Below are positions 23,279-61,750 of a DNA stretch of 64,000 nt, piece after piece. The position numbers and the translations under genes are program-made. Origin of the DNA: an uncultured delta proteobacterium (GTDB taxonomy: Bacteria; Myxococcota_A; UBA9160; SMWR01); assembly GCA_963832165.1 (NCBI GenBank), contig CAWHTE010000001.1, positions 83,855 to 147,854 on the forward strand, in the 5' to 3' direction. A model generated the notes under the pieces. The model did no database searches. It was not told the origin of the DNA and saw only the letters and a list, made by a program, of their open reading frames with translations. Positions within the stretch are counted from its first letter, which is position 1, and each line of letters starts with the position of its first letter.

Positions 23279-23528
23279 ACTCGTGGATCGAGGCGGCCAG
23301 CGTCTCGGCCGTCTCCAGATTCTCCGGGGTGAGCAGGCTCTCGTCGGCCCAGACGCCGGTGGCCTCTTCGATCGCGAGCATGAGCTGGGTGACGGCGAGC
23401 GAGTCGAGCCCCGACTCGATCAGGTTCGATTTCGGCGTGAGATCGGGCGCCGACGCGAGCAGATCGTCGCGCAGGATCCGATGGATCAGATCCGTGAGCT
23501 TCTCGCGTGTCCAGCCGTTCACACTCAT
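23259..23528 (-). CDS. Acyl carrier protein (second ACP)
   Basis: This is the 89-aa C-terminal part of ORF 23259..24281, beginning MSVNGWTREKL. The phosphopantetheine site is SGLDSLAVTQL. Confidence 0.8.
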   Translation of the reverse strand: MSVNGWTREKLTDLIHRILRDDLLASAPDLTPKSNLIESGLDSLAVTQLMLAIEEATGVWADESLLTPENLETAETLAASIHEYVSRGE

Positions 23529-23624
23529 CCCGAAAGCAATGTAGGCGAGCGCTGGATCGGTTGCAGGGTGCAAGCGGCCGAAGGCCGCGCGCAGCGAGGC
23601 GAAGCCGAGCGAAGACCAGAAGGC

Positions 23625-33290: not shown

Positions 33291-33301
33291 TGTTCGATCT
33301 C

Positions 33302-33367
33302 CGCTCGCCTACGGCTCGCTGCGCGCGCCCTTCCGATGGCCTTCGCTCGCCTGCGACTCGCTGCGCG
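33302..33367. repeat. Two 24-nt units of a short repeat family (copy A), 42-nt period
   Basis: CGCTCGCCTACGGCTCGCTGCGCG (33302-33325) and CGCTCGCCTGCGACTCGCTGCGCG (33344-33367) match at 22 of 24 positions. They are related to 47146-47169 and share the flank GCGCGCCCTTC...GGCCTTCGC with 47086-47110. Confidence 0.6.
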
Positions 33368-34862: not shown

Positions 34863-34865
34863 GGC

Positions 34866-41758: not shown

Positions 41759-41821
41759 GTGTCTCCTGGGGCGGTCGGCGGCGGTACCACGGGAGTTCAC
41801 GGTACTGTAGGACCGAGCCGC

Positions 41822-47082: not shown

Positions 47083-47198
47083 TAGCGCGCCCTTCTCGCC
47101 GGGCCTTCGCGCTCGCTAACCGCTCGCGCTCGGGCTCCGAGCCTTCGCTCGGCTACGCCTCGCTGCGCGTCGGCCGACTCCGTCGGCCTCCTTGCTGG
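47083..47198. repeat. Copy B of the short repeat family, with an embedded perfect hairpin
   Basis: The sequence GCGCGCCCTTC...GGCCTTCGCGCTCGC...GCCTTCGCTCGGCTACGCCTCGCTGCGCG is present. The core at 47146-47169 matches 33302-33325 at 22 of 24 positions. It is followed by GGCCGAC-TCC-GTCGGCC (47172-47188) and CTTGCTGG, as in copy A. Confidence 0.6.
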
Positions 47199-47530
47199 AG
47201 CAGCGCCTTCAGATCCGGCGGGATCTCCATGCGCTCGAAGAAGCCGACGTTCGCGCCGCCCGTGTTGCCGCCGGGCGGAATGCCGAGCGCCGACCCGATC
47301 GCCGCGGCGGGCAGCCGCACGATCTGCCCCACGATCTCGCGCACGTCGCGGCGCAGCCAGCCGATGTGCAGCATCTCGACGTGCGTGCGCACGTGCGGCA
47401 CGACGTACTGCTGACCCAGGATGTGCGCGCGCTCGAGGTGGCGGAACGCGTCGTCGAGCGAGCCCGCGCGGCGCGCGGCTTCGGCCTCGCGCAGCTCGGA
47501 CTCGAACGCCGAGCGCAGCTTCGGATTCAT
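47153..47530 (-). CDS. DUF3703-like small protein
   Basis: The start is ATG 47530 (ATGA overlap with the P450 stop at 47527). FRHLERAHILGQQYVVPHVRTHVEML is typical of the family as I recall it. The 3' end runs into repeat copy B. Confidence 0.6.
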   Translation of the reverse strand: MNPKLRSAFESELREAEAARRAGSLDDAFRHLERAHILGQQYVVPHVRTHVEMLHIGWLRRDVREIVGQIVRLPAAAIGSALGIPPGGNTGGANVGFFERMEIPPDLKALLQQGGRRSRPTRSEA

Positions 47531-48774
47531 CGCGCCGAGGATAGTCGAACCCGCAGGTGATCGGGACCGCGGAAGGCGACGCCCCGGATGCACGGGGCCC
47601 GGAAGCGCGGATCGACATGGAGCTCGGCGAAGCGATCGAGCAGCGCGCCGATCGCGACGGTCGCTTCGAGGATCGCGAGGCGCGAGCCCGCGCAGTAGTG
47701 GCGGCCGAGCCCGAACGCGAGGTGCGCCTCGCCCTGCCGATCGACGTCGAAGCGGTCCGGGTCGGGGAAGCGGGTCTCGTCGCGATTCGCGGAGCCGATC
47801 CCGAGCACGAGGTCGCGGCCGCGCGCGATGCGCGTCCCCGCGATCTCGACGTCCTCCGTCGCCGTGCGCGAAAGGATCTGGATCGGCGACTCCCAGCGCA
47901 GCGTCTCCTCGAGCAGACGGCCGATCCGGCTGCGGTCCGCGCGCACCGACGCGAAGAGCGCCGGGTCGCGCAGCATCGCGAAGAGCGCACTCCCGAGCAG
48001 GTGATAGGTCGTCTCGGCTCCCGCGAGCACGAGCAGGTAGAGAAAGCTGATCACCTCCTCGTCGGTCAGCGCACCTCCAAGGGCGGTGGCCGAGGCGAGC
48101 TCGCTGATCAGATCGTTGCCGGGCCGGGATCGCTTCTGGGAGACGAGCGGCGCGAGCGCGGCCGCCATGTTCTTCACCGCGGCGAAGCCGCGCCCGGGAT
48201 CGGTCGCGACCATCGAGAGATCGGCCGACCAGCCGTGAAACGTCCTCACGTGCTCGGGCGCAAGACCGAGGATCTCCGTGAACACGCGCAGCGGATACAC
48301 GTACGTGAACTCCGCCACGAGATCGGCGGCATCCCGCTGCTCGAACGAGTCGATCACGGCCTCGGCGATCGACGCGACGATGCGCGGAAACTCACCCGCG
48401 AGCGAGCGCGGAGCGAGCGACGGCGTGATCAGGCTGCGGTGCTTCAAGTGCTCCCGGCCGTCCATTCCGATCAGCGTCCGCCCGATCACGATGCCGATGC
48501 CGCGGTCCGTGTTCGACCGGCTCGAGAAGCGCTCGTGGTCGCGCAGGACGGCGAGTACGTCGTCGTAGCGGGACACGAAGTACGAAGTCCCGGAGAGCAG
48601 CTCGACCACGGGCGCTTCGCGGCGCGCTCGGGCATAGAGCGGGTAGGGGTTCGCGATCGGCGCGGTCGGCCCGGCCAGGAACATGTCGGGGACCGTGAGC
48701 GGCAGGATCTCGTCGGTGGACCCGATCGTTTGCAGCGAACTGATATCGACAGCGGCGGCGGCTACATCGTGCAT
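47527..48774 (-). CDS. Cytochrome P450
   Basis: The heme-thiolate loop is FGLGRHYCAGSRLA, the ExxR motif is EETLRW, and the I-helix is LAGAETT. Confidence 0.9.
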   Translation of the reverse strand: MHDVAAAAVDISSLQTIGSTDEILPLTVPDMFLAGPTAPIANPYPLYARARREAPVVELLSGTSYFVSRYDDVLAVLRDHERFSSRSNTDRGIGIVIGRTLIGMDGREHLKHRSLITPSLAPRSLAGEFPRIVASIAEAVIDSFEQRDAADLVAEFTYVYPLRVFTEILGLAPEHVRTFHGWSADLSMVATDPGRGFAAVKNMAAALAPLVSQKRSRPGNDLISELASATALGGALTDEEVISFLYLLVLAGAETTYHLLGSALFAMLRDPALFASVRADRSRIGRLLEETLRWESPIQILSRTATEDVEIAGTRIARGRDLVLGIGSANRDETRFPDPDRFDVDRQGEAHLAFGLGRHYCAGSRLAILEATVAIGALLDRFAELHVDPRFRAPCIRGVAFRGPDHLRVRLSSAR

Positions 48775-48779
48775 GGATC

Positions 48780-48808
48780 AGTCAATCGAGACGCGCCACC
48801 CCTGTCAA
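48780..48808 (-). promoter_or_regulatory. Candidate promoter in front of the P450 gene
   Basis: On the minus strand, a perfect TTGACA (48808-48803) is followed by a 17-nt spacer and a weak -10 TTGACT (48785-48780). The ATG is at 48774, so the transcript would be leaderless. Confidence 0.25.
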
Positions 48809-48889
48809 CGAAAATCCGAGCGGCGAGACGAGCCGTTAGGCGCAAGTCGCGCGCAGGCGATGTGCAACTGCGACGCGAACAGCGCTCCG

Positions 48890-50629
48890 CTACGCGAGTC
48901 CGAGCTCCGCGAGCACGGCCATCTGCGCCAGGTCGCCGTCGATCACGAGGCGCCGCGTGTTGAAGGCCTCCGCGCCCGAGAGATCTCCGTTCGCGATCTG
49001 CAGATAGCTCGCCGCATCGGCACGGATCGTCACCGTGGCATCGGCGCGCTCGGCGGGCGCGGTGTCGATCGTGAGCGCGCCGTCGCGCACCGCGAGGATC
49101 CACGTGCCGCCGTGCTCTCCCGTGAGCGCGTACTGCACCACGAGCTCGACGCCCGCGGCCTTCGCGGGATCGAAGCGGCTCGCCATCGCGGCGAACAGCT
49201 GCTCGACGGAGTCGACGCGGCGGGCCGCGAGCCGCGCGGCGCGCGCCCGCTCGCGCGCGAGCACGTCGGCTTCCATCGCCGCGATCGACTCGGCGAGGAT
49301 CGCCGCGATCTGGTCCGCGCACGCGCGATCGATCGTGAGCGGAGGCGCGAGTCCCACCACCTCCGTCCCCATCGCGCGCACGTAGAGCCCGCGCTGCCAG
49401 GCTTCCGCTTCCACGCGTGCACAGGCCGAGTGCGGCTTCGAGAAGCCGCGCCGCGTCGCCTTGTCGGCGACGAGCTCGATGCCGATCATGAGCCCCACGC
49501 CGCGGATATCGCCCACGGAATCGAAGCCGCCGAGCATCTCGCGCAAGCGCTCGATCAGATAGGCGCCCACGTCGGCTGCGTTCTCGGCCAGGCGTTCGCG
49601 TTCGAGGATCTCGATGTTGGCGAGGGCCGCGGCGCAGCACGTGGGATGGCCCATGTACGTGAAGCCGTGGCTGATCGGCATCTGGTTCGGCAGCTTCGCG
49701 CTGATCGTCTGGTAGATCTCCTCGGAGACCACCGACGCGCCGAGCGGCAGATAGCCGCTCGTGATCCCCTTCGCGAGCGTCACGACGTCGGGCCGCACGC
49801 GATAGCGCTCGAAGCCGAACATCGTTCCCGTGCGCCCGAAGCCCGTCACGACCTCGTCGAGGATCAACAGGATCCCGTGGCGGTCGCAGATCTCGCGGAT
49901 GCGCTCGAAGTAGTCGTCGGGCGGGGGGATGATGCCGCCTGCGCCGTACACGGGCTCGGCGATGAACGCCGCGATCGTCTCGGCGCCGTCGCGCTCGATC
50001 AGGCGCTCGAGCTCGTCGGCGCACGCGAGCCGGCAGCTCGGATAGGTCTTGCCGAGCTCGCACTTGAAGCAGTAGGGTGCCGCGACGTGCGCGAAGCCGG
50101 GCGCCTCGGGTCCGAAGTTCCAGCGCAGCGGCATGATGCCCGTGGCGGTCATCGTCGCGATCGTGAGTCCGTGATAGGCATGGTGGCGAGCCACGATCGT
50201 CGTGCGCCGCTCCTCGCCGCGCAGCGCCCAGTAGAGGCGCACGAGCTTGATCGACGTCTCGTTGGCCTCCGACCCGCCCGACGAGAACATCACGTGCGAG
50301 AGGCCGTACTCGCGCGGGAACATCGAGCACAGCTTCTCGGCGAGCTCGATCGCGCGCGGGTGGGACTGGCCGTGGAAGGTCGTGAAGTACTCGAGCGTCT
50401 CCATCTGCTCGCGCACGGCCGCGATGATCTCGGGGCGCCCGTGCCCGACCGCCACGCACCAGAGCCCGGAGAACCCGTCGATCAGGCGGTGTCCGCGATC
50501 GTCGGTGATCCACCAGCCGTCGCCTTCGACGATCACGCGCGCGCCGTCGCTCTCCATCTCGCGTGGCGGCGTGAGCGGGTGGATCAGATGGGCGGCGTCG
50601 CGCTCGGCGAGCGGGGTCCGCCCGGGCAT
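48890..50629 (-). CDS. Class III (omega) aminotransferase fused to a C-terminal SCP2 sterol-carrier-like domain
   Basis: The aminotransferase part carries SGGSEANE, LILDEVVTGFGRTG and the PLP lysine in TLAKGITSGY. The last approximately 108 aa (48890 to about 49220) read FDPAKAAGVELVVQYALTGEHGGTWILAVRDGALTI...NGDLSGAEAFNTRRLVIDGDLAQMAVL, which matches the SCP2 pattern. Confidence 0.85.
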   Translation of the reverse strand: MPGRTPLAERDAAHLIHPLTPPREMESDGARVIVEGDGWWITDDRGHRLIDGFSGLWCVAVGHGRPEIIAAVREQMETLEYFTTFHGQSHPRAIELAEKLCSMFPREYGLSHVMFSSGGSEANETSIKLVRLYWALRGEERRTTIVARHHAYHGLTIATMTATGIMPLRWNFGPEAPGFAHVAAPYCFKCELGKTYPSCRLACADELERLIERDGAETIAAFIAEPVYGAGGIIPPPDDYFERIREICDRHGILLILDEVVTGFGRTGTMFGFERYRVRPDVVTLAKGITSGYLPLGASVVSEEIYQTISAKLPNQMPISHGFTYMGHPTCCAAALANIEILERERLAENAADVGAYLIERLREMLGGFDSVGDIRGVGLMIGIELVADKATRRGFSKPHSACARVEAEAWQRGLYVRAMGTEVVGLAPPLTIDRACADQIAAILAESIAAMEADVLARERARAARLAARRVDSVEQLFAAMASRFDPAKAAGVELVVQYALTGEHGGTWILAVRDGALTIDTAPAERADATVTIRADAASYLQIANGDLSGAEAFNTRRLVIDGDLAQMAVLAELGLA

Positions 50630-50632
50630 CGG

Positions 50633-51448
50633 CTAGCGCGCACCGCGCTTCGCGCGCGCGTCGATCGTGTTGCGCTTCACCGCGCGCCGCATGAACTCGG
50701 GTGCGACCGCCTGGATCACGTAGGCGGGCGAGATCCCGCCCGGGTAGGTGATCTCGTGCTTGCCCTTCGCAAGCGCATCCATCGTCGCGTCGACGAGCGC
50801 TTCCACCTCCACCATGCCGCGCTTCGCGGCCGGCGGCATGCGCGACAGCGCCTCCTCGTCGAAGAACGGCGTGCGGATCACGCCCGGGCACACCGTGAGC
50901 ACGTGCACGCCCGCGTCCTCGACCTCGAGCGAGAGCGAGGCGGCCAGTCCGACCATCGCGAACTTCGAGGCCGCGTAGGCCGACTCCTCGGGAGGTGCGA
51001 TCTTGCCCGCGACCGACGCGACGAACACGAGCCAGCCGCGCCGCTGCTCCACCATCGCAGGCAAGAGCGCCTTCGTGAAGTAGAGCGTTCCGAAGTAGTT
51101 CACGCGCATCACGCGTTCCATGTCCTCGACCGACCACTCGAGGAAGGTGCGGTGATGTCCGTAGCCCGCATTGTTCACGAGCATGTCGATGCCGCCCCAG
51201 ACCTCGCGCGCGCGCGCCGCCGTGGCCGCGACCTCCGCCGCGCTGGACACGTCGCACGGCAGCACCACGGCCTCGCTTCCGCCGGAGCGGATCTCGGCCG
51301 CGAGCTTCTCGAGCTCCTCCGCGCGGCGCGCCACGAGCGCCACGCGCGCGCCCTCGCGCGCGAGCCGCAGCGCGAGCGTGCGGCCGATGCCGCTCGAGGC
51401 GCCCGTCACGAGCGCGCGCAGCCCCTGGTAGGAGCGCAGCCGCGTCAT
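50633..51448 (-). CDS. SDR-family oxidoreductase
   Basis: The start is ATG 51448 (ATGA overlap with the TetR stop at 51445). Motifs TGASSGIGR, NNAG and YAASKFA are present. Confidence 0.85.
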   Translation of the reverse strand: MTRLRSYQGLRALVTGASSGIGRTLALRLAREGARVALVARRAEELEKLAAEIRSGGSEAVVLPCDVSSAAEVAATAARAREVWGGIDMLVNNAGYGHHRTFLEWSVEDMERVMRVNYFGTLYFTKALLPAMVEQRRGWLVFVASVAGKIAPPEESAYAASKFAMVGLAASLSLEVEDAGVHVLTVCPGVIRTPFFDEEALSRMPPAAKRGMVEVEALVDATMDALAKGKHEITYPGGISPAYVIQAVAPEFMRRAVKRNTIDARAKRGAR

Positions 51449-52086
51449 CGCGCGTTCTCGACGAGCGCGAGGATCACCGACTGCAGGTGCTGCTTGGTGC
51501 GCTCGCGGATGCGCGGGTCGGAGAGGTCCTTTCCGAACAGCTTCTTGTAGTGCGCAGTCGACAGGATGTGGTGGTGCAAGATTCCCTCCACGGTGATCAG
51601 CAGCAGGCCCAGATCGTGTTTGGGGGCGCCGAGCCTCTGGCCCGAGAGCGACTCGTCGATGAACTGCACCCAGCTCTGCTCCTTCAGCGAGACGCCCTTC
51701 GCGAGGCCTTCGCCGAGTGTTGCGCGTACCGAGAGCGCCACCCAGCCGCGCTTCTCGAGAAAGAAATCGAACAGCTCCTCGACGACCTTCTCGACCGTCG
51801 TCGCGAGATCGCCCTGGCCCGCGACCACCGCGCCGACGCGCTTGAGGATCTCGTCGTCCCAGCGCGAGAGCACCGCCTGGTACAGGCCCGGCTTCGAGCC
51901 GAAGTGGTGCTGGATCGTGAACGGGCGCACGCCGCATGCGCGCGAGAGCTCGCGCACCGACACGCCGCGGTAGCCGCGGTTCGCGAACAGGCGCTCGGCG
52001 CGGTCGAGGATCCGGGTGCGCGTGCGCTCGGCCTCCTCCTGCGAGCGCCGGCCGGCCGGGCGCGACTGGACTTTCTTATTGGCCAT
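51445..52086 (-). CDS. TetR/AcrR-family transcriptional regulator
   Basis: The start is ATG 52086 (MANKKVQSRPAG...). The HTH region is RILDRAERLFANRGYRGVSVRELSRACGVRPFTIQHHF. No obvious SD is present, so the start is uncertain. Confidence 0.8.
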   Translation of the reverse strand: MANKKVQSRPAGRRSQEEAERTRTRILDRAERLFANRGYRGVSVRELSRACGVRPFTIQHHFGSKPGLYQAVLSRWDDEILKRVGAVVAGQGDLATTVEKVVEELFDFFLEKRGWVALSVRATLGEGLAKGVSLKEQSWVQFIDESLSGQRLGAPKHDLGLLLITVEGILHHHILSTAHYKKLFGKDLSDPRIRERTKQHLQSVILALVENAR

Positions 52087-52119
52087 GTGTACAGTAAAAC
52101 ACCGCGCGCGCTCCGAGTC

Positions 52120-52131
52120 AACGCGCGCGTT
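52120..52131. promoter_or_regulatory. Perfect 12-bp palindrome in the TetR/dehydrogenase divergent intergenic region (operator candidate)
   Basis: AACGCGCGCGTT lies at 52120-52131, midway between ATG 52086 (minus strand) and ATG 52170 (plus strand). TGTACA at 52088-52093 is a second short palindrome. Confidence 0.3.
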
Positions 52132-52169
52132 CCCCGAAACCCCCCGGAATCCAGGCATCTGGAGGTCGC

Positions 52170-53417: not shown

Positions 53418-56400
53418 GCCGCGTGCTCTTGGGAATCGATCTCGGAGGCGGCAGCGTCCACTGCACGCTGCTGGACGCCGACACGGGCGCGCGCTTCGAG
53501 GCCGCGCTCGCGATCACGAGCCAGTCGGCGGAAGGCACGAGCGGCCTCGGCTACGAGATCGCCACCGATGAGCTCTGGGCGCGCGTGGGCGAGACCACGC
53601 GCGCGGTGCTCGCTTGCGCGGGCGCCACGGGCGATGCCGTCGCGGGCGTGTCGGTGACAGCGATGCGCTTCACGTCGGTGGTGCTCGACGCGGCCGGCGA
53701 GGTGCTGTTCGCGGTGCCCAACCGCGATGCGCGCTCGGTCGGCGAGAGCATGCGGATCGCGGCCGAGCGCGGCCAGGCGGTGCTCGCGACCAGCGGCATG
53801 TGGCCGCTGCCGATCCACGCTGCGCCGCGCCTGTCGTGGCTGCGCAGCGCGCGGCCTGACGTGTTCGGGCGCGCGGTTACGCTGCTCTCGCTCTCGGACT
53901 GGCTGAACTTCCGGCTCTGCGGACGGCGGATCACCGACGAGACACAGGCGGGCTGCACGGGCCTGTTCGATCTGCGCAAACGCGAGTGGAACGCGGAGCT
54001 GATCGACGCGTTCGGGCTGCCGCGCGCGATCTTCCCCGAGGTGCGACCGTCGGGCGAGCGGATCGGCGAGCTCGACGCGCGCGCCGCGCGCGAGCTCGGG
54101 CTCGCACCCGGCACGCCCGTGGCGCTCGGCGGCGGCGACACGCGCTGCGGACTGCTCGGCGCGGGCGCGATCGCCGACGGCGACGTGGGCCTGATTGCGG
54201 GAACCACCGCTCCGCTCGAGCTCGTGACCGACGAGCCCGTGATCGACGGCGAGGGACGGCTGCGCAGCGGGCTTCACGCGGTGCCGGGGCGTTATGTGCT
54301 CGAGGCGAACGTGGGACCGGTCGGCGAGGGCCTGGCCTGGCTCGCGCGCCTGCTCCACCCGGACGACGCGCGGCCCGACGACCGCTTTGCGGCCGAGGCT
54401 TCGACCGCGGCGATCGGCTCGGCCGCGATGCTCGCGAACGTGGGCGCACTCGTGGCGAACGATCGCCAGCCCGCTTTCCCCGTCGGCATGTACTCGCTCT
54501 CCCACATGACGGGCACGCAGGGGCGCAGTGCGCGCGCGAGCCTCGCGCGCTCCGCGCTCGAGGGAGTGGCGTGTGCGGTGCGCGCGAACCTCGAGCAGCT
54601 CACGCGCGTCACGGGGCGCGATCTGCGCCGCATTCATCTCGCGGGCGGGCTCTCGCGCAGCGCGCTGTTCGCGCGGATCCTCGCGGGCATCACGCGCGCC
54701 GAGGTGGTGCGCGCGGCGGCGCCCGAGGCGACCGGCCTCGGCGCTGCGCTGTGCGCGGGCATCGGCGCGGGCGTGTTCGCGGACGCGCTCGACGCGGTGA
54801 GCCACGGCGTGCGCGCAGCGGAGACCTCCGCGCCGCAGGCGGCCGAGGCCGACGCGTACGAGCGGCTCTACGAGAGCTGGAGCGAGCTGCGCGACGCGGC
54901 CGAGCAGACCACGGCGCCGATCGCGATGCGCCACACGGTTCCGGCCGCGCTCGCCGCCTCGCAGCGCAACGGGCGGCGCGCCAAGGCCGCGCATCGGCCC
55001 AAGGCGCTCGTCACCGCGGCGTTCGACGACGCGTCGATCGAGCGGCTGCGCGGCTTCGCCGACGTCGAATACGCGAGCTTCCGCGACCGCATGCAGCTGC
55101 TCACGGGCGCGAGCCTGGTCTCGGCGCTCGCCGACTGCGACGTGCTGGTCACCGAGGTCGACGTCGTCGACGCGAAGGCGCTCGAAAAGCTTCCGAACCT
55201 GCGCGTGGTGGCGGCCTGCCGCGGCGACGCCGTGAACGTGGACGTGGCCGCGTGCAGCGCGTTCGGGATCCCGGTGCTGTTCGCGCCGGGCCGCAACGCC
55301 GACGCGGTGGCCGACCTCACCGTCGCGTTCCTGCTCAACCTCGCGCGGCGGCTGCCCGCGGCCACGAAGTTCCTCGCCGACCCGGCGGTGACGGCCGGCA
55401 ATCTCGCGGCGATGGGCAAGGCGTTCCGGGGCCTGCAGGGCTACGAGCTCTGGTCGAAGACGGTGGGTCTGGTCGGACTCGGCGCGGTCGGGCGCGGCGT
55501 GGCGCGCCGGCTCTCGGGCTTCGGCGTGCGCCTGCTGGTCGCCGATCCGTACGTCTCCGCGGAGGAGGCCGCGCTCGCGGGCGCCGAGAAGGTCGAGCAG
55601 GGCGAGCTCCTGCGCACGAGCGACTTCGTGAGCCTGCACGCGGCCGTCACCGACGCGACGCGCGGGCTGCTCGGCCCCGCGCAGTTCGCCGCGATGAAGC
55701 CCGGCGCGTATCTGATCAACACCGCACGCGCGGCGCTGGTCGACGAGGCCGCGCTGCTCGCGGCGCTCGACAGCGGGCACCTCGCGGGCGCTGCGCTCGA
55801 CACGTTCGCGGTCGAGCCGCCCGGCGCCGATCACCCGCTCGTGCGCCACGGCAGCGTGATCCACACGCCGCACATCGGCGGCAACACGAACGAGGTCGCT
55901 GCGCACCAGGGCCGGAGTATCTCCGATGCGCTCGAGCAGCTCGTGCGCGGTGAGGCGCCGCGCTGTCTGCTCAATCCCGAGGCGCTCGCGGGCTTCAGCT
56001 GGACGGGTTCGCGCCGCGTGCCGACGGCCGACGAGCTCACCGCGCTCGCCAATCGCGCGGGCCCGGCCGTCACCGACCTGCAGCGCGACGCGCAGGCCGA
56101 GGCCCAGGAGGAGAAGCTCGAGCCGAGCGCCGCGCCCGCGGAGACGGTCGCGGCGATGAAGCGGATCCTCGAGACGTTCACGGCCGCGATGGCGCAGGAC
56201 GAGCGCGTGCACGCGTTCAGCGCCGACAAGGACGTCGCGCTCTACTTCGTGCTGCCCGACATCGGCCTCGACCTCCACATCGCGCTGCGCGAGGGACGGG
56301 TCTCGGGCGGGCTCGGCAAGCCCGAGGGTGGCTCCGTGGTCCAGCTGCGCATGCGCGCGGCGATCCTGGACGGGATGTTCACGGGCAAGGTGAACGCGAT

Positions 56401-57229
56401 GGAAGCCGCGATGCAGGGCGAGGTCGCGTTCACGGGCGACGCCGGCAAGGCGATGGCGATCCAGCAGCTCCAGGGCGACATGCGGCGGCTCTACAGCGCC
56501 GCGCGCGAAGAGGTGGGCGATCCGGGCGACCTCGCCGCGATTCCGCAGCCGGGCGCGGCGCCGGGCGCCGCCGCTGCGGCGAAGCCCGTCGGCTCCGACG
56601 ACGTCCGCGTCGAGATCGTCTCGATCACCCAGGAGCTCTACGAGAACCAGGTGATCACCGCGACGGGCGGCAACGTGTGCGCGCGGATCCCGGGCAAGCC
56701 GGACGAGGTCTGGATCACGCCGAGCCAGCTGTTCAAGGGCGATCTGCGGCCCGAGGTACTCGTGCGGATCGACCTCGATGGCAAGTCGCTCGACGAGGGC
56801 TCGCGCTCGGCGTCGTCCGAGTGGAGCATGCACACGCAGATCCTCAAGAAGAAGCCCGAGGCGAAGGCCGTGATCCACGCCCACGCGCCGTTCGCGACCA
56901 CGCTCGCGAACACGGGGCTGCCGTTCCTGCCGATCAGCACCGAGGCCGCCTTCTTCGGCGACATCCCGCGCGTGCCGTTCATCATGCCCGGCACCGACGC
57001 GCTCGCGGAGGCGGTCTCCGAAGCGATGAAGGACAGCTGGGCCGTGTTCATGGTGAACCACGGGCTGGTCGTGTGCGGGCGCAGCCTGCGCCGCGCGGCC
57101 GACATGGTGGAGATCGTCGAGCGCTCGGCACAGCTGATCCTGGGCTGCTATGCGGTGGGCAAGGAGCCGCCGGTGCTGCCCGAGAAGACGGTCGCGATGC
57201 TGCGCAAGATGGGCGATCTGGTCGCGTAG
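53414..57229 (+). CDS. 1271-aa four-domain fusion: FGGY carbohydrate kinase, D-isomer 2-hydroxyacid dehydrogenase, SCP2-like domain, class II aldolase/adducin domain
   Basis: The ORF is uninterrupted in one frame. The FGGY part (53414 to about 54910) carries GIDLGGGS, ALGGGDTRCG and HLAGGLSRSA. The 2-HADH part (about 55003-55990) carries GLVGLGAVGRGVA, NTARAALVDE and TPHIGGNT. The SCP2 part (about 56140-56520) carries VALYFVLPDIGLDLHIAL...GKVNAMEAAMQGEVAFTGDAGKAM. The aldolase II part (about 56605-57229) carries SSEWSMH, VIHAHAP and MVNHGLVVCG. Confidence 0.85.
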   Translation: MSRVLLGIDLGGGSVHCTLLDADTGARFEAALAITSQSAEGTSGLGYEIATDELWARVGETTRAVLACAGATGDAVAGVSVTAMRFTSVVLDAAGEVLFAVPNRDARSVGESMRIAAERGQAVLATSGMWPLPIHAAPRLSWLRSARPDVFGRAVTLLSLSDWLNFRLCGRRITDETQAGCTGLFDLRKREWNAELIDAFGLPRAIFPEVRPSGERIGELDARAARELGLAPGTPVALGGGDTRCGLLGAGAIADGDVGLIAGTTAPLELVTDEPVIDGEGRLRSGLHAVPGRYVLEANVGPVGEGLAWLARLLHPDDARPDDRFAAEASTAAIGSAAMLANVGALVANDRQPAFPVGMYSLSHMTGTQGRSARASLARSALEGVACAVRANLEQLTRVTGRDLRRIHLAGGLSRSALFARILAGITRAEVVRAAAPEATGLGAALCAGIGAGVFADALDAVSHGVRAAETSAPQAAEADAYERLYESWSELRDAAEQTTAPIAMRHTVPAALAASQRNGRRAKAAHRPKALVTAAFDDASIERLRGFADVEYASFRDRMQLLTGASLVSALADCDVLVTEVDVVDAKALEKLPNLRVVAACRGDAVNVDVAACSAFGIPVLFAPGRNADAVADLTVAFLLNLARRLPAATKFLADPAVTAGNLAAMGKAFRGLQGYELWSKTVGLVGLGAVGRGVARRLSGFGVRLLVADPYVSAEEAALAGAEKVEQGELLRTSDFVSLHAAVTDATRGLLGPAQFAAMKPGAYLINTARAALVDEAALLAALDSGHLAGAALDTFAVEPPGADHPLVRHGSVIHTPHIGGNTNEVAAHQGRSISDALEQLVRGEAPRCLLNPEALAGFSWTGSRRVPTADELTALANRAGPAVTDLQRDAQAEAQEEKLEPSAAPAETVAAMKRILETFTAAMAQDERVHAFSADKDVALYFVLPDIGLDLHIALREGRVSGGLGKPEGGSVVQLRMRAAILDGMFTGKVNAMEAAMQGEVAFTGDAGKAMAIQQLQGDMRRLYSAAREEVGDPGDLAAIPQPGAAPGAAAAAKPVGSDDVRVEIVSITQELYENQVITATGGNVCARIPGKPDEVWITPSQLFKGDLRPEVLVRIDLDGKSLDEGSRSASSEWSMHTQILKKKPEAKAVIHAHAPFATTLANTGLPFLPISTEAAFFGDIPRVPFIMPGTDALAEAVSEAMKDSWAVFMVNHGLVVCGRSLRRAADMVEIVERSAQLILGCYAVGKEPPVLPEKTVAMLRKMGDLVA

Positions 57230-57230
57230 T

Positions 57231-57851
57231 CTACGCCGAGTCGACTCTCGCCCGGAGCGCCGTCCGTTCCGCCGCGGTGACCACGCGCGGCGCGCACACC
57301 AGCGCGCCGGTCGCGTCGAAGAACGGCCCGCGGCGGTGATCGCCGCGCAGCCGCGCGGCGAGAGCGATCCAGAAGAGCCGGAGGATCACCGACGCAGGAA
57401 AGCGGTCGTGCGCATCCAGCTGCTCGCGATGCTTCGCGAAGCGGGCGTGACCGCGGGTGCGGATCGGTCCGAGCACCTGCTCGCGCGCGCTCTCGGGCGC
57501 ATCGATGCAGCTGTGGATCAGGCCCACGAACGGCACCTGCCGCGAGGCGAGCGTATTGCCGATCGGGGTGCGGCAGCACGCCGCGTACCAGCGCACGAGG
57601 CCGCCGGGTGCGAGGCGCATGCAGGCCAGGCGATCGGCGCCCGCGCTGATCTCGAGATGGGCGGGAGACATCTGGAAGATCTCGGTGCCGCCGTGTTCGT
57701 CGAGCGTCTCCTTCGCGGCGTCGAGGAAGTGCGCGAACGCCTGGCAGTCGTCGCAGTAGCAGTAGACGCGGTTCCCGAGCTCGCCCGAGACGCCGCGCGC
57801 GCTCCCGCGCAGCGCTCCGCAGCTGCATCGGATCGGGAGATCGGCGGGCAT
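57231..57851 (-). CDS. Cys-rich GFA/CENP-V-like (DUF6151-like) zinc-binding protein
   Basis: The Cys pattern is CSCGALRG...VYCYCDDCQAF...YAACCRTPIG. The protein is 206 aa. Confidence 0.6.
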   Translation of the reverse strand: MPADLPIRCSCGALRGSARGVSGELGNRVYCYCDDCQAFAHFLDAAKETLDEHGGTEIFQMSPAHLEISAGADRLACMRLAPGGLVRWYAACCRTPIGNTLASRQVPFVGLIHSCIDAPESAREQVLGPIRTRGHARFAKHREQLDAHDRFPASVILRLFWIALAARLRGDHRRGPFFDATGALVCAPRVVTAAERTALRARVDSA

Positions 57852-57869
57852 CGGACGTGCGCCGTACGC

Positions 57870-59102
57870 CTAGCGCGCCGGCGCGAGCTCCCAGCGCAGG
57901 GGCACGCGCTTGATGCCGCCCACGAACGACGACCGCACGCGGTCGACCGGCCCCGCGAGCTCGGCGCGCACGAGTCGCGTGCGCAGCTCCTCGAACACGG
58001 CGCGGATCTCGAGCCGCGCGAGATGGGCACCCAGGCACACGTGCTCGCCGCGCCCGAAGCCGACATGGTCGTTGGGCTGGCGGTCGATCCGGAACACGTC
58101 GCCGTCGGGGAAGATCTGCTCGTCGCGGTTCGCCGACGGGTAGAACAGGCACAGCGACTGTCCGGCGCGGATCGCCTGGCCGCGCAGCGAGAAATCCTCG
58201 GTCGCGGTGCGGCAGAACTGGATCACAGGCGTCGTCCAGCGCACGATCTCCTCGATCGCGGGTGTCACGAGCGCCTCGTTCTCCTGGAGCCGCTTCCACT
58301 CGCCCGGATTCTCGAGGAACGCGAGCATGCCACCCGTCATCGCGTTGCGCGTCGTCTCGTTGCCGGCCACCACGAGCAGGAAGAGGTAGGACAGCAGCTC
58401 GACGGGGGGCAGCGCGCGCCCGTCCACAGAGGCGTTGGCCACCTCGCTCACGATGTCGTCGTTCGGCTGGCTCCGCCGGCGCTCGGCGAGCTCGTGGAAG
58501 TAGGCGAACACCTCGTGGCGCGCGCCGTCGATCGTCTTCTGCGCGTCGCCATCGCGCTGAAACTCCGGGTCTTCGGGCGCGATGACCTCGTTGGTCCAGC
58601 GGAACAAGAGCGGCCAGTCCTCGTCGGGCAGGCCCAGCATCAGCGCGATCACCGCGATCGTGATCGGCGCGGACACGTCCTTCACGAAGTCGATCTGCTC
58701 GCGCTGCGCAGCGGCGTCGAGCACGTCGCGCGTGATCCGGCGCACCTTCGACTCCCAGCCCTGCGCCGCGCGCGGCGTGAAGCGCTTGCTCGCGACCTGG
58801 CGGTACTTCGCGTGGTCGGGCGGGTCCATGTTGAGCAGATGGCGCGTCTCGCCCTCGGGCGGCGGCGGGACCTTGTTGTCGAACACCGCGAGGCGCGGCG
58901 CATTCTGGAGCGTCTTGGGGTGCTTGCCCAGCCAGACGACATCGGCGTGCTTGGTGACGACCCAGAACGGATCGAAGTTCGGCCGCTCGTACCACAACAC
59001 CGGCGCGTGCTGGCGCAGGTATGCCCACTCGCGATGCGGATAGCCGTGCTGCTCGTAGTGCTCGGGGTTCATCACGTCGATCGTCGCGAGATCGAAGCTC
59101 AT
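57870..59102 (-). CDS. Cytochrome P450 (second)
   Basis: The start is ATG 59102 (ATGA overlap with the upstream stop at 59099). The heme loop is FGRGEHVCLGAHLA, the ExxR motif is EEIVRW, and the I-helix is VAGNETT. Confidence 0.9.
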   Translation of the reverse strand: MSFDLATIDVMNPEHYEQHGYPHREWAYLRQHAPVLWYERPNFDPFWVVTKHADVVWLGKHPKTLQNAPRLAVFDNKVPPPPEGETRHLLNMDPPDHAKYRQVASKRFTPRAAQGWESKVRRITRDVLDAAAQREQIDFVKDVSAPITIAVIALMLGLPDEDWPLLFRWTNEVIAPEDPEFQRDGDAQKTIDGARHEVFAYFHELAERRRSQPNDDIVSEVANASVDGRALPPVELLSYLFLLVVAGNETTRNAMTGGMLAFLENPGEWKRLQENEALVTPAIEEIVRWTTPVIQFCRTATEDFSLRGQAIRAGQSLCLFYPSANRDEQIFPDGDVFRIDRQPNDHVGFGRGEHVCLGAHLARLEIRAVFEELRTRLVRAELAGPVDRVRSSFVGGIKRVPLRWELAPAR

Positions 59103-60397
59103 CGCGAGCCTCCGTTCGCCTTCGTCGCCACCTTCGGGAACGCGCGCGCGATCGCGAGCAGCCACTCCACGATGCGCACCACGTGCAGCGAGAGCACGGG
59201 CTTGCCGCTCGTGCACAGCGCAACCGACAGCGCGCGATCGGGGTCGGCCCACGAGAAGATGTTCGAGAATCCCAGGTGTCCGAACGCGCTCTCGCTGTCG
59301 GGCCCGAACAGCGAGAAGTTGGGGCTGCCGAGCATGAAGCCGAGCCCGTAGCGGAGCGGGAAGCCGAGCGTGAAGTCGACCTCCCACCACGCGGACTCGC
59401 CTGTGGCGTGGCGGATCGTCGCGGGGTCGAGCACGCGCACGCCGTTCTGCTCGCCGCCGTCGAGCAGGCACTGGTAGAACGCACACAGCTCGCTCGCGGT
59501 GGTGACCACGTTCGCGGACGGGATGATCCCGGTGAGGTAGCGCGGATCGTTCGCGAGCTCGATCACGTGCTCGATGTCGGCCCCGAGCGCGTTGCGCAGG
59601 ATCGCCGAGCCGGGCCACGGCACGGGCGGACCCGTCACCGCGTCGCGCGCAACGAGCGGCAGATCCTCCTTGCCCACGCCGTAGCGCATCCAGCGGTAGC
59701 CGAGCGGCTCGATCAGCTCGCGCTCGAGCACGGTGCGGATGTCGGACCCCGTGACCCGCCGCACCACCTCGGCGAGCACGAAGCCGCCCGAGACGGCGTG
59801 ATAGGCGAGCACGCGCCCGGGCCGCGACCGCAGCTCCGCGTCGCACATGATCTCGACCACCTTCTCGGGCTGACCGAGCAGATCGAGGTCCATCGACTCG
59901 GGCGGCAGATTCGGGATGCCGGCCTTGTGCGCGAGCAGGTGGCGCAACGTGATGCGCTGCTTGCCGTGCTTGGCGAACTCGGGGATGAAATCGCACACGC
60001 GGTCTTCGAGGTGCAGCACGCGCTTCTCGTCGAGCTTGTGGATCACCATCGCCGTGATCGCCTTGCTCGCCGAGAAGATGTCGAACGGGGTCTCGGTGCT
60101 GACCGAGAGCTTCGGCGCGTCGGGCGGGTCCTGCGGCGCGTTACCGCGCGCGTGGCCGATCGCGCGGTTGAGCACCACGACGCCCTGGCGCCGCACGCAC
60201 AGCGACAGCGCGGGGTGTACGCCCGTGGCGTAGATCGCCTGCGTCGCGTCCCACACGCGCTCGACTTCGGCGGCCGCCACGTCCGAGCCGCCGGGATCCT
60301 CGGGGCCCACGTCGAGGTTTTCTTCGAGGTCGCGCGGGAGGCGACACCGCTTCGTGCCGGGCAGGTTCAGCTGACCGATCCAGTGGAGGGGGTCCAT
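59099..60397 (-). CDS. Beta-lactamase-fold serine hydrolase
   Basis: The S-x-x-K motif is FSASKAIT. The preferred start is ATG 60397 (MDPLHW), because the longer ORF start at 60439 would overlap the SWIM gene. Confidence 0.8.
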   Translation of the reverse strand: MDPLHWIGQLNLPGTKRCRLPRDLEENLDVGPEDPGGSDVAAAEVERVWDATQAIYATGVHPALSLCVRRQGVVVLNRAIGHARGNAPQDPPDAPKLSVSTETPFDIFSASKAITAMVIHKLDEKRVLHLEDRVCDFIPEFAKHGKQRITLRHLLAHKAGIPNLPPESMDLDLLGQPEKVVEIMCDAELRSRPGRVLAYHAVSGGFVLAEVVRRVTGSDIRTVLERELIEPLGYRWMRYGVGKEDLPLVARDAVTGPPVPWPGSAILRNALGADIEHVIELANDPRYLTGIIPSANVVTTASELCAFYQCLLDGGEQNGVRVLDPATIRHATGESAWWEVDFTLGFPLRYGLGFMLGSPNFSLFGPDSESAFGHLGFSNIFSWADPDRALSVALCTSGKPVLSLHVVRIVEWLLAIARAFPKVATKANGGSR

Positions 60398-61748: not shown

Positions 61749-61750
61749 CG

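Follow-up and report, generated by a model that had tools for sequence, protein, structure and literature searches.

A cluster of ten genes in a 64,000-nucleotide stretch of DNA from an uncultured member of the Myxococcota (hereafter, the window) encodes two enzymes that each carry a fused SCP2 domain. This raises two questions: (i) whether the two enzymes serve one pathway and (ii) what that pathway acts on. The cluster is of a Myxococcota type, with two widespread SCP2-fused enzymes side by side, which together probably cut a sugar-like polyol or aminopolyol head off a greasy lipid.

Gene content and organization of the cluster

All ten genes and all domain calls were confirmed as real by Pfam matches and third-position GC (0.88-0.94). 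The domain assignments of the preliminary description hold, including both SCP2 domains (each above the Pfam threshold), and its three ATGA/TCAT overlaps, at 51445, 47527, and 53414, are all present in the sequence. A fourth overlap, at 59099-59102, couples a hydrolase gene to a P450 gene.

One arm lies on the minus strand. It starts with a TetR-family regulator (51445..52086; TetR_N 6e-14) of 213 aa from an ATG at 52086. A longer ORF reaches 52158, but the start at 52086 (MANKK) is more likely because it aligns with the start of the orthologue in a close relative (locus L001). The regulator's stop is overlapped by the start (TCAT at 51445) of a classical SDR oxidoreductase (50633..51448; 271 aa; adh_short 9e-59). 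Next is a 579-aa class III omega-transaminase with a C-terminal SCP2 domain (48890..50629; Aminotran_3 4e-103), which matches omega-transaminases in the PDB at up to 1.7e-130. Its SCP2 domain scores 45.7 bits in Pfam against a cutoff of 21.3 (8.6e-12), and the protein also matches Alkyl_sulf_C (9e-10). The same fusion occurs in >110 clusters at 61-91% identity. It is followed by P450-A (47527..48774; 415 aa; Pfam p450), a CYP107/CYP109-like hydroxylase whose top PDB matches (1e-46 to 2e-62) are 6gmf, 4rm4, 5l90, and Vdh-type enzymes. The stop of P450-A is overlapped (TCAT at 47527) by the start of a 125-aa DUF3703 protein (47153..47530; PF12487, 9e-40), a gene kept beside the cluster in L001 and L019.

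On the plus strand, a 415-aa Zn-dependent MDR dehydrogenase of the polyol/threonine-dehydrogenase type (ZnADH; 52170..53417; ADH_N, ADH_zinc_N) has weak NCBIfam matches to Tdh, IolM, and idonate and galactitol-1-P dehydrogenases. It is coupled by ATGA at 53414 to a four-domain megaenzyme. With the preferred TetR start, the divergent intergenic region between the arms (52087..52169) is 83 nt long. Alignment with L001, L019, and L020 revealed conservation of the block 52087-52109 and of GAGTCAACG. The palindrome AACGCGCGCGTT at 52120-52131, earlier proposed as a TetR operator, is present; it is not significant, as perfect 12-nt palindromes number 88 in the window versus 83 expected, and it is not conserved in the orthologous regions of these three loci. 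A CG-rich hairpin at 52103-52129 was not above chance.

A third arm, on the minus strand, converges on the megaenzyme. Its members are those previously named, in a corrected order: outward from the megaenzyme come a DUF6151 protein, P450-B, and a serine hydrolase. The first gene (57231..57851) is separated from the megaenzyme by 1 nt and encodes a Cys-rich, 206-aa protein earlier called GFA-like and Zn-binding; its DUF6151 match passes (1e-36), whereas its GFA match (5e-4) is below the cutoff. It has only a partial match in L001 and none in L019, and its membership of the cluster is doubtful. P450-B (57870..59102; 410 aa) is CYP125/CYP124-like, with PDB matches to a reconstructed CYP125 ancestor (CYP125MRCA, 4e-110), CYP125 (2e-77), and P450terp and CYP124 (~1e-74). 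It accompanies the cluster in L001 only; a 40% identical homologue adjoins the megaenzyme in L057. Its start overlaps (TCAT at 59099) the stop of a beta-lactamase-fold, LipE-like hydrolase (59099..60397; Beta-lactamase 2e-54) of 432 aa from an ATG at 60397, with a longer ORF reaching 60439. The hydrolase matches the NCBIfam lipase LipE at 1e-122, yet its 410 bits fall short of the cutoff (750), and it is syntenic in L001 only.

Domains and catalytic residues of the megaenzyme

The megaenzyme (53414-57229, plus strand; 1271 aa) combines FGGY_N/C, 2-Hacid_dh(_C), SCP2, and Aldolase_II domains in Pfam. Residue conservation was assessed across 29 homologues (48-86% identity), and the functional residues of all three catalytic domains are invariant. 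The FGGY kinase (aa 1-451; 53414..54766; FGGY_N 1e-40, FGGY_C 6e-21) retains its Asp pair (D9, D242) with G11 and G411-G412. Its top PDB match is LsrK (5ya0, 5e-50), and in NCBIfam it is far nearer LsrK/XylB (2e-68 and 2e-62) than glycerol kinase (1e-36). LsrK and XylB phosphorylate their substrates at a terminal CH2OH beside a CHOH. The second domain, a D-isomer 2-hydroxyacid dehydrogenase (aa 528-858; 54995..55987; 2-Hacid_dh_C 8.5e-52), is closest to the PGDH family (~5e-46 against PGDH structures), which oxidizes a CHOH beside a CH2OP. It retains the NAD-binding GxGxxG (G688/G690/G693) with D711, and the Arg-Glu-His triad (R772, E801, H820).

The third domain (aa ~905-1035; 56126..56518) matches Pfam SCP2 at 1.2e-7 (32.4 bits versus a cutoff of 21.3). 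An AlphaFold model of this segment (pLDDT 93.5) supports the SCP2 fold: its best 46 Foldseek PDB matches are exclusively SCP2 folds, including alkylsulfatase C-domains, SCP2, UbiJ, and the SCP-2L domain of MFE-2, and by this modeling the nearest structures are lipid-binding SCP2s. The fourth domain is a class II metal-dependent aldolase (aa 1063-1271; 56600..57229; Aldolase_II 2.5e-45). Its best PDB match by sequence is 6btd (5e-26), ahead of FucA (2e-22), and its Foldseek TM score to FucA/6btd is 0.86-0.90. Three His (H1155, H1157, H1216), E1136, and the phosphate-site N1087 and S1134-S1135 are invariant, and such a conserved phosphate site agrees with a substrate that comes from the fused kinase. 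Retro-aldol cleavage is not certain, because the equivalent of FucA Tyr113 is absent (Ile here; Thr against the 6btd Tyr) and the family in NCBIfam also contains epimerases, dehydratases, and decarboxylases. NCBIfam scores are similar for FucA, AraD-like, Ru1P aldolase, and OtnC decarboxylase.

Homologues occur as SCP2-aldolase, dehydrogenase-SCP2x2-aldolase, kinase-dehydrogenase-SCP2-aldolase, and kinase-dehydrogenase-SCP2x2-aldolase proteins. SCP2 is tandemly duplicated in longer homologues and always directly precedes the aldolase; the SCP2-aldolase pair is the constant core. Parts of this design have known counterparts. L-fucose/L-rhamnose catabolism (FucK or RhaB with FucA or RhaD) likewise uses an FGGY kinase to give a ketose-1-phosphate and a metal-dependent class II aldolase to give DHAP and an aldehyde, and FucA shares the fold and the metal and phosphate ligands. 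That route, however, has an isomerase acting on an aldose, where the megaenzyme has a dehydrogenase predicted to act on a polyol phosphate, and it lacks the single-chain fusion and inserted SCP2. In 5-deoxyribose salvage, or the DHAP shunt (DrdK-DrdI-DrdA), whose aldolase 6btd is also near the top by fold, DHAP is clipped off a sugar with a non-polar far end, but by separate soluble enzymes without SCP2 and with an isomerase replacing the dehydrogenase; its kinase is of another family. Both 5-deoxyribulose-1-P and fuculose-1-P aldolases yield DHAP plus an aldehyde. The peroxisomal MFE-2 and SCPx of eukaryotes also fuse lipid-catabolic domains to an SCP2 thought to hold the hydrophobic substrate, although their SCP2 stands at the C terminus, not inside the chain, and the catalytic domains differ (SDR, hydratase, and thiolase on CoA esters).

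All three catalytic families are adjacent, unfused and without SCP2, on a Streptomyces atratus plasmid (NZ_CP109382.1), beside a SorC-type sugar-binding regulator and an MFS transporter (32% identity to megaenzyme residues 3-859, 28% to the aldolase domain). The existence of this unfused trio shows that these activities belong to a single pathway unit. M. tuberculosis Rv0729-Rv0728c-Rv0727c is presumably another such trio; we found no functional characterization of the actinobacterial trio in the literature.

Conservation and genomic neighborhoods of the two SCP2 fusions

The preliminary description treated the cluster as a single candidate pathway. Co-conservation supports this only in part, as the full cluster recurs in no genomes but close relatives (77-84% identity), one of which lacks some of the genes. 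Only in the window's own clade (L001, L020) do the transaminase-SCP2 and the megaenzyme adjoin each other; of the other 76 dereplicated megaenzyme groups, just those of L001 and L020 have a true transaminase-SCP2 orthologue near the megaenzyme. L019 (a 77% relative) keeps DUF3703-SDR-TetR divergent from ZnADH-megaenzyme and lacks the transaminase-SCP2, P450-A, and the P450-B/hydrolase arm; the coupling of ZnADH to the megaenzyme and the divergent SDR-TetR are conserved in L001, L019, and L020. Outside the clade, the transaminase-SCP2 forms a triad with SDR and TetR in four of five independent contexts (L015, L016, L017, L098/L099), with no megaenzyme within 10 kb in any of the five. The SDR is 35-40% identical to those adjoining transaminase-SCP2 homologues in L015, L016, L017, and L098, loci that adjoin polyamine-type genes (arginase family, agmatine deiminase, CN-hydrolase). 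In L100 the fusion is beside RPE65 oxygenases. Outside close relatives, the SDR+TetR+transaminase-SCP2 triad and the four-domain megaenzyme are separate conserved modules. The synteny of L001 also takes in plainly unrelated EamA and SNF2 genes.

We surveyed 77 dereplicated, independent megaenzyme loci. In at least 14 of them a P450 or KshA-like Rieske oxygenase lies within 300 bp of the megaenzyme, at least 12 have an acyl-CoA ligase within 1.5 kb, and 9 have a TetR upstream. These counts are lower bounds, since ORFs in the high-GC metagenome loci were called only crudely. Other neighbors include VOC, Amidohydro_2, acyl-CoA dehydrogenases, Thiolase_C_1+DUF35, MaoC, and CoA-transferase III; some flanks are of beta-oxidation or steroid-side-chain type. 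Directly upstream of the megaenzyme in ~13 independent loci is a P450 34-39% identical to P450-A. The TetRs heading TetR-P450-megaenzyme operons (L032-L035, L052) share 28-31% identity with the cluster's TetR across at least 60% of the latter. The similarity of the cluster's TetR to the TetR_C_41 regulators of the transaminase-SCP2 triad is confined to the HTH. Three distant loci (L078, L087, L097) have a class III aminotransferase close to the megaenzyme, versus ~0.4 expected by a rough estimate. Each of these has an extended SDR directly upstream of the megaenzyme, and one also has a ZnADH orthologue. A ZnADH orthologue is found close to the megaenzyme in L003 (66%) and L078 (53%), and another (52%) adjoins the triad in L017. 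Some contexts are non-lipid: the homologue in L002 lies among capsule genes and that in L014 among sugar/PTS genes. The window's cluster has neither an acyl-CoA ligase nor an aldehyde dehydrogenase nearby.

A candidate pathway and its alternatives

The hydroxylation, alcohol oxidation, transamination, phosphorylation, and aldol cleavage proposed earlier are consistent with the capabilities of the domains. Between tailoring and dismantling a lipid, which had been left open, the neighborhoods of megaenzyme homologues favor dismantling. From gene content, domain integrity, catalytic-residue conservation, and neighborhood statistics, all observed directly, we infer a reaction order, a lipid substrate, a catabolic direction, and a mode of regulation. 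Tentatively, a lipid-bound polyol is phosphorylated, oxidized, and retro-aldol-cleaved to DHAP and a lipid aldehyde. The center of the locus would be a module for the breakdown of a hydrophobic compound bearing a terminal polyol or aminopolyol, with the SCP2 domain gripping its greasy tail. The kinase would place phosphate on the terminal CH2OH, the PGDH-like dehydrogenase with NAD+ would oxidize the neighboring CHOH to a ketose-1-phosphate-like head, and the FucA/DrdA-like aldolase would release DHAP, leaving the lipid as an aldehyde shortened by three carbons. This aldehyde may, in most lineages, be oxidized to an acid and activated by the neighboring acyl-CoA ligase for beta-oxidation; the adjacent P450 or Rieske oxygenase may add a hydroxylation at some step of the pathway. 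In the window's clade the module appears extended by the translationally coupled ZnADH, which with the SDR, transaminase-SCP2, and P450 could turn amine or carbonyl forms of the head group into a kinase-ready alcohol. TetR probably acts in the promoter region that both arms share and keeps them repressed in the absence of the lipid. Bacteriohopanepolyols are an attractive candidate substrate. We found no description of this head-group-clipping sequence in the literature. Counting against it are the missing transaminase-SCP2 link outside the clade, the L002 and L014 contexts, and the lack of a nearby ligase or aldehyde dehydrogenase. In addition, D-2-hydroxyacid dehydrogenases usually act on 2-hydroxy acids, not polyol phosphates, and an SCP2 fold can have a solely structural role, as it does in Eis-type proteins.

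The separate distribution of the two fusions favors an alternative, that the cluster is an accidental mosaic, in which two or three independent modules with different substrates became joined in one lineage: a TetR/SDR/transaminase-SCP2 module (with P450-A/DUF3703) for a hydrophobic amine, ZnADH-megaenzyme, and an operon of CYP125-like P450, esterase, and DUF6151. The polyamine and RPE65 contexts of the transaminase-SCP2, the genes missing from L019, and the reach of L001 synteny into unrelated genes are in keeping with this. The two SCP2 domains moreover have no specific similarity (E 0.5), which weakens the earlier argument that their double occurrence implies a shared hydrophobic substrate. 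We nevertheless consider a mosaic somewhat unlikely, given that ZnADH orthologues accompany both modules, that aminotransferases recur near distant megaenzymes, that the genes are tightly packed and overlapping around a single divergent promoter region, and that two SCP2 genes within 8 kb are improbable by chance if the genome has only a handful. It is more doubtful that the megaenzyme is simply the actinobacterial trio fused, acting on a small soluble polyol or sugar acid and ending, for example, in DHAP-forming cleavage or decarboxylation, with SCP2 structural or for oligomerization. The sugar-type regulator and transporter beside the trio, the sugar genes of L014, and the undiscriminating aldolase scores agree with that possibility, but all fused forms, and SCP2-aldolase proteins that stand alone, keep SCP2 and sometimes carry it twice, the structures nearest to this domain bind lipids, and the main neighbors are oxygenases and lipid/CoA-thioester catabolic genes, not sugar transporters.

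Biosynthetic tailoring is the least probable reading. Here the kinase and dehydrogenase domains would generate DHAP on the spot from glycerol, the aldolase would join it to an SCP2-presented lipid aldehyde, and the transaminase would aminate the product to an aminopolyol lipid. Myxobacteria do produce unusual lipids, and SCP2 is next to the aldolase only. The pairs of transaminase and reductase-type extended SDR (NAD_binding_4) in L078, L087, and L097 resemble the reductive-amination pairs in natural-product pathways (PMC10829540). Against tailoring stand the kinase's distance from glycerol kinase, the catabolic neighbors (acyl-CoA ligase, acyl-CoA dehydrogenases, thiolases, TetR repressor), and a cluster without synthase, PKS, or acyltransferase.

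Two catabolic systems bear comparison with the proposed head-group clipping. With bacterial steroid side-chain catabolism (CYP125, FadD-type ligases, ChsE/ChsH, Ltp2-DUF35, KshA) the cluster shares the CYP125-like P450-B, and distant megaenzyme loci share the KshA-like Rieske, Thiolase_C_1+DUF35, MaoC, acyl-CoA dehydrogenases, CoA-transferase III, and acyl-CoA ligases, but KshA/B, KstD, Hsa, and Ltp genes are all absent from the cluster itself. To our knowledge, steroid degradation has no kinase or phosphate-dependent aldolase step, fumonisin detoxification has no kinase or aldolase stage, and FumI has no SCP2. In fumonisin detoxification, the esterase FumD hydrolyzes the toxin and the class III aminotransferase FumI then removes the amine of this aminopolyol lipid; by enzyme type, these steps resemble the serine hydrolase and transaminase of the window's cluster.

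The megaenzyme family

The real interest of this locus is a large, uncharacterised, and mechanistically suggestive family of fused enzymes, represented here by a 1271-aa protein (53414-57229, plus strand) that we refer to as the megaenzyme. It carries FGGY kinase, 2-hydroxyacid dehydrogenase, SCP2, and class II aldolase domains. This architecture is present in all of the best 120 matches (43-100% identity), which derive from Myxococcota, Halioglobus, "Deltaproteobacteria," Acidoferrales, and "Bacteroid…" MAGs and have only generic protein names. A single-sequence scan of genome contigs recovered only eight loci, and statistics needed a profile-based scan of metagenome contigs, which identified 367 stretches encoding relatives. 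At 90% identity, the family divides into 200 or more clusters; its hosts include Myxococcota, Halieaceae, Spongiibacteraceae, Novosphingobium, and MAGs labelled Acidoferrales or "Bacteroid…". No member has a characterised function in the sources searched, and literature searches for FGGY plus class II aldolase plus SCP2 fusions and for Rv0727c-Rv0729 returned nothing relevant. A biochemical function established for one member would extend to the annotation of hundreds of genes.

The kinase has the two actin-like FGGY domains, recognized by FGGY_N (1e-40) and FGGY_C (6e-21), and matches the LsrK structure at 5e-50. It falls into no named equivalog (LsrK, XylB, GlpK, FucK), the best being LsrK with 231.5 bits versus a cutoff of 528. 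The second domain is a D-isomer-specific 2-hydroxyacid dehydrogenase (2-Hacid_dh_C, 8.5e-52; 209 bits to the PGDH NCBIfam, cutoff 454). The C-terminal domain is of the class II aldolase/adducin (FucA) type, as judged by its metal, Glu, and phosphate residues, and a model of residues 860-1271 (pLDDT 85.7) aligns in Foldseek with FucA and with 6btd, an aldolase of the 5-deoxyribose pathway (TM 0.86-0.90). Across 29 homologues (48-86% identity), invariant positions include D9/G11, D242, and G411-G412 in the kinase, covering its N-terminal DxGxx motif, a catalytic Asp, and glycine-rich ATP loops, and the GxGxxG glycines (G688/G690/G693), D711 (NAD), and the triad R772-E801-H820 in the dehydrogenase. 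Also invariant in the aldolase are the metal-binding H1155, H1157, and H1216, E1136 (equivalent to catalytic Glu73), and the phosphate site N1087 and S1134-S1135 (FucA Asn29, Ser71-Ser72). This invariance of catalytic residues indicates that all three catalytic domains are under selection. Given the retained phosphate site, a phosphorylated substrate is expected, and it could be supplied by the fused kinase. The equivalent of Tyr113', which FucA uses in C-C cleavage, is missing (Ile aligns to it in FucA, and Thr to the Tyr of 6btd), so this domain is a candidate aldolase rather than a certain one. The class II aldolase family also holds non-aldolase chemistries.

The preliminary description placed SCP2 domains in two proteins of the locus, and both assignments are sound. 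Pfam scores are 45.7 and 32.4 bits versus a gathering cutoff of 21.3, and a model of megaenzyme residues 900-1045 (pLDDT 93.5) adopts the alpha/beta SCP2 fold with its five-stranded sheet. Each of the best 46 PDB matches to this model has an SCP2 fold; lipid-binding alkylsulfatase C-domains rank first, followed by SCP2 proteins, UbiJ, and the SCP-2L domain of MFE-2; structural SCP folds of the Eis type appear only from rank 48 onward. The megaenzyme SCP2 could be structural. The two SCP2 domains lack specific similarity to each other (E 0.5), and the view that one is a copy of the other was rejected.

A representative search identified SCP2-aldolase as the constant core across architecture variants. 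These include a stand-alone SCP2-aldolase (P0250, 373 aa), a kinase-less protein with dehydrogenase, two SCP2, and aldolase domains (P0262, 987 aa), and a full-length form with SCP2 in tandem (P0044, 1476 aa). Plasmid searches yielded no full-length fusion of either SCP2 protein, and turned up an unfused trio on Streptomyces atratus plasmid NZ_CP109382.1 (L102, 5354-8717). There, an FGGY kinase and a 2-hydroxyacid dehydrogenase are convergent with a class II aldolase, SCP2 is absent, and the trio adjoins a sugar-binding regulator, an MFS transporter, and an SDR. With identities of 32% and 28% to the matching megaenzyme parts, this apparently uncharacterised three-gene module is homologous to the megaenzyme. 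Kinase, dehydrogenase, and aldolase thus make up one pathway unit, with SCP2 as the addition that defines the fused family.

Gene cluster and its conservation

Because the window has a G+C content of ~70%, ORFs were screened by third-position GC. On the minus strand are genes for a DUF3703 protein (47153-47530), a cytochrome P450 (P450-A, 47527-48774), a class III aminotransferase with a C-terminal SCP2 domain (transaminase-SCP2, 48890-50629), an SDR (50633-51448), and a TetR regulator with two possible starts (51445-52086 or 52158). On the plus strand, a Zn-dependent MDR dehydrogenase (ZnADH, 52170-53417) precedes the megaenzyme. Converging on the megaenzyme end from the minus strand are genes for a DUF6151 protein (57231-57851), a second P450 (P450-B, 57870-59102), and a beta-lactamase-fold hydrolase (59099-60397). 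Every Pfam call, both SCP2 domains included, exceeds its gathering score, so the genes and domains first described are confirmed. Overlaps at 51445, 47527, and 53414 are present in the sequence, and a fourth of the ATGA type, absent from the preliminary description, joins the hydrolase stop to the P450-B start (59099-59102). The hydrolase, P450-B, and DUF6151 genes form a tight minus-strand operon; its end and the megaenzyme stop are 1 nt apart, leaving no room for a terminator. None of the cluster's proteins reaches a curated NCBIfam cutoff. The kinase comes nearest to LsrK, the dehydrogenase to PGDH, the aldolase to FucA/AraD/OtnC, the hydrolase to LipE, and the transaminase to PRK07481-type omega-transaminases. 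No gene for ferredoxin or ferredoxin reductase was found among those annotated in and around the cluster.

Transaminase-SCP2 has a class III omega-transaminase fold (Aminotran_3, 4e-103, profile positions 11-401), with the motifs DEVVTGFGRTG and TLAKG accounting for the PLP lysine and for an Asp to bind the pyridine nitrogen. It matches omega-transaminases in the PDB at up to 1.7e-130 and is predicted from its sequence to be of the amine:pyruvate type, with no NCBIfam equivalog cutoff reached (best 500 bits versus 575). Conservation of the fusion is striking: the best 120 matches have 61-91% identity, and several are from Acidimicrobiia and other actinobacterial MAGs; a literature search for such fusions returned nothing relevant. 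A ready-made omega-transaminase with a built-in predicted lipid-binding domain may interest biocatalysis.

The two arms had been proposed to form one co-conserved pathway. Dereplication of metagenome, genome, and look-up loci at 90% left 77 megaenzyme loci, and transaminase-SCP2 shares a neighbourhood with the megaenzyme only in two close relatives, L001 and L020 (82-84% megaenzyme identity). The two genes are not adjacent in a third relative (L019), in the 73 other dereplicated megaenzyme loci, or in five transaminase-SCP2 contexts, and no true transaminase-SCP2 orthologue occurs near a dereplicated megaenzyme outside the window's clade. L001, a Myxococcota MAG (84%), has the complete arrangement; since flanking EamA and SNF2 genes are kept too, this reflects general synteny. 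L020 (83%) retains transaminase-SCP2 through megaenzyme. L019 (77%) retains DUF3703, SDR, TetR, ZnADH, and the megaenzyme, and is without transaminase-SCP2, P450-A, and the P450-B/hydrolase arm. Here (69-3168), DUF3703 and SDR are 16 nt apart and the 3.1-kb segment encoding transaminase-SCP2 and P450-A is missing; these therefore behave as an insertable or deletable two-gene unit.

Outside the window's clade, four of the five independent transaminase-SCP2 contexts (L015, L016, L017, and L098/L099) have a triad of transaminase-SCP2, SDR, and TetR_C_41 regulator, and none of the five has a megaenzyme within 10 kb. The fusion is coupled to an arginase-family gene in L098, lies near agmatine deiminase and CN-hydrolase genes in L015, and is beside two RPE65 oxygenases, a Rieske protein, and a P450 in L100. 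A 52% orthologue of ZnADH adjoins it in L017 and a 53% orthologue accompanies the megaenzyme in L078, making ZnADH the one gene linked to both modules. The most fitting view of the locus is that of an assembly specific to this lineage, built on a conserved ZnADH-megaenzyme/TetR-SDR core into or beside which the widespread transaminase-SCP2 (together with P450-A) and the CYP125-like/esterase operon have been placed.

Neighbour counts for the megaenzyme are minimum values, since short contigs are common and some genes in high-GC loci escaped ORF calling. An acyl-CoA ligase is encoded just 3' of the megaenzyme, within 1.5 kb, in at least 12 groups. A P450 lies directly upstream on the same strand in ~10 groups (34-39% identical to P450-A, above the identity to P450-B), and in 9 groups a TetR precedes it. 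A KshA-like Rieske oxygenase is an immediate neighbour in 7-9 groups, and a small VOC/glyoxalase-fold protein is directly downstream in 5. The P450 and Rieske oxygenases may be alternatives to each other. Other recurring neighbours are Amidohydro_2, acyl-CoA dehydrogenases, Thiolase_C_1 plus DUF35, MaoC, and CoA-transferase III. Typical layouts are TetR-P450-megaenzyme-(VOC)-ligase, and Amidohydro_2 and Rieske genes transcribed away from megaenzyme-VOC-ligase. In a rarer layout, seen in L078 (13930-17973), L087 (2805-6618), and L097 (3126-7550), an extended SDR (Epimerase/3beta-HSD/NAD_binding_4) immediately precedes the megaenzyme, and a class III aminotransferase without SCP2 is close by. 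Three aminotransferase co-occurrences versus ~0.4 expected by chance (a rough estimate) suggest that this "amine" variant is real but minor. L097 also encodes a TPP enzyme, a second 2-hydroxyacid dehydrogenase, an M28 peptidase, and an alpha/beta hydrolase, and an aldehyde:ferredoxin oxidoreductase in L087 hints that its host is an anaerobe. Some loci have no lipid theme, being located among capsule genes (L002) or sugar/PTS genes (L014). The L002 homologue, 52% identical, is from Halioglobus sp. Uisw_031 (NZ_CP159826.1), a cultivable host.

Predicted chemistry and candidate substrates

LsrK and XylB phosphorylate a terminal CH2OH beside a CHOH, PGDH oxidizes a CHOH beside CH2OP, and FucA/DrdA-type aldolases convert ketose-1-phosphates to DHAP and an aldehyde. 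The usual substrates of D-2-hydroxyacid dehydrogenases are acids. We infer that the megaenzyme may carry out phosphorylation, oxidation, and retro-aldol cleavage, in that order, on the polyol portion of a molecule with a hydrophobic tail. This would yield DHAP together with a lipid aldehyde, and the latter could be oxidized and then activated by the neighbouring ligase. If this mechanism is right, it would be a new bacterial attack on lipids, in which the polar polyol head is handled like a sugar by kinase, dehydrogenase, and aldolase and harvested as DHAP, and the hydrophobic remainder is passed to beta-oxidation. Dismantling of a lipid-anchored polyol or amine, one of two roles originally considered, accounts for the evidence better than tailoring does. 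The earlier interpretation is partly supported; co-conservation of transaminase-SCP2 and megaenzyme across divergent genomes does not hold.

Speculatively, and with only a slim chance of being correct, the megaenzyme family would be the missing enzyme of bacteriohopanepolyol breakdown. These compounds suit the chemistry because bacteriohopanetetrol has a 5-deoxyribitol-like tetrol at C32-C35, 35-amino forms are common, and C32 acids are known breakdown products. Phosphorylation of bacteriohopanetetrol at C35, oxidation at C34, and C32-C33 retro-aldol cleavage would release DHAP and the C32 hopanoid aldehyde from which C32 hopanoic acid, dominant in sediments, derives. Via transaminase-SCP2, SDR, and ZnADH, 35-aminobacteriohopanetriol could be converted to the aldehyde and then to the tetrol. 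The remaining side chain might be shortened as in steroids by the acyl-CoA ligase, acyl-CoA dehydrogenases, MaoC, and Ltp2/DUF35-type neighbours. A literature search for hopanoid catabolic genes found no paper. The megaenzyme is a concrete enzyme candidate for geochemical questions such as bacteriohopanepolyol side-chain shortening. A glycerol-ether substrate was dropped by reasoning only, as a retro-aldol reaction is impossible on alkyl-DHAP.

P450-B is CYP125/CYP124/P450terp-like (4e-110 to a reconstructed CYP125 ancestor), a type that hydroxylates terminal methyls of sterol or branched-lipid chains, and its gene shows translational coupling with that of the LipE-like hydrolase. This CYP125-like protein is the only feature shared with steroid catabolic clusters of the KstR type; Ksh, KstD, Hsa, Chs, and Ltp genes are absent from 47-60 kb of the window. 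Cluster membership of the P450-B/hydrolase arm is uncertain because it is syntenic only in L001; in another megaenzyme locus (L057), a 40% homologue of P450-B adjoins the megaenzyme. P450-A is CYP107/109-like. The ATP-dependent 25-hydroxysteroid kinase/lyase system of Sterolibacterium was rejected as an analogue, as its kinase is a phosphotransferase (APH) family member and no lyase is known for it (PMC8449060).

Regulatory region and other genes of the window

The two arms share an 83-nt region if TetR starts at 52086. The palindrome at 52120-52131, previously suggested as the TetR operator, is real but unremarkable, given 88 perfect 12-nt palindromes in the window versus 83 expected, and it is absent from the orthologous regions of L001, L019, and L020. 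A block at 52087-52109 and a GAGTCAACG motif are conserved in the orthologous intergenic regions and are better operator or promoter candidates. A hairpin at 52103-52129 was discarded as no more than chance level. Over most of its length, the window's TetR shares 28-31% identity with the TetRs of TetR-P450-megaenzyme operons. It was rejected as the TetR_C_41 regulator of the transaminase-SCP2 triad, to which its similarity is limited to the HTH.

At 60423-63917 is an SNF2-family helicase with a SWIM-type C-terminus and a Gly/Arg-rich low-complexity insert (approximately aa 690-790). Relative to L001, its N-terminal segment is 97% and its C-terminal segment 72% identical, with the insert in the gap between. 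At 40736-43054, ORFs for a TauD-family dioxygenase (minus strand) and a Cys/Met-metabolism PLP enzyme (plus strand) overlap by ~320 nt as called; the latter probably starts later, because its Pfam match begins at residue 127.

A separate secondary-metabolite-type cluster (1582-30874) is reminiscent of aryl-polyene or flexirubin-type loci. It encodes an AMP-binding protein with an ApeI-like dehydratase domain (3473-5221), an MMPL protein (7104-9470), a second AMP-binding enzyme (19213-20628), and a Trp-halogenase-like protein (23184-24899), along with a FabG-like SDR, an SbmA/BacA-like ABC protein, an FAD oxidoreductase, an amine-oxidase/desaturase-like protein, and two methyltransferases. An aromatic amino-acid lyase ORF (27634-28554) covers profile positions 185-466 only; its N-terminal third is absent from this frame, pointing to a frameshift, a pseudogene, or an incorrectly placed start. 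Another redox-catabolic unit may be the minus-strand operon at 31315-35732, which encodes a luciferase-like monooxygenase, an FAD_binding_2 protein (KstD/fumarate-reductase type), an Old Yellow Enzyme, and a Pyr_redox_2 protein.
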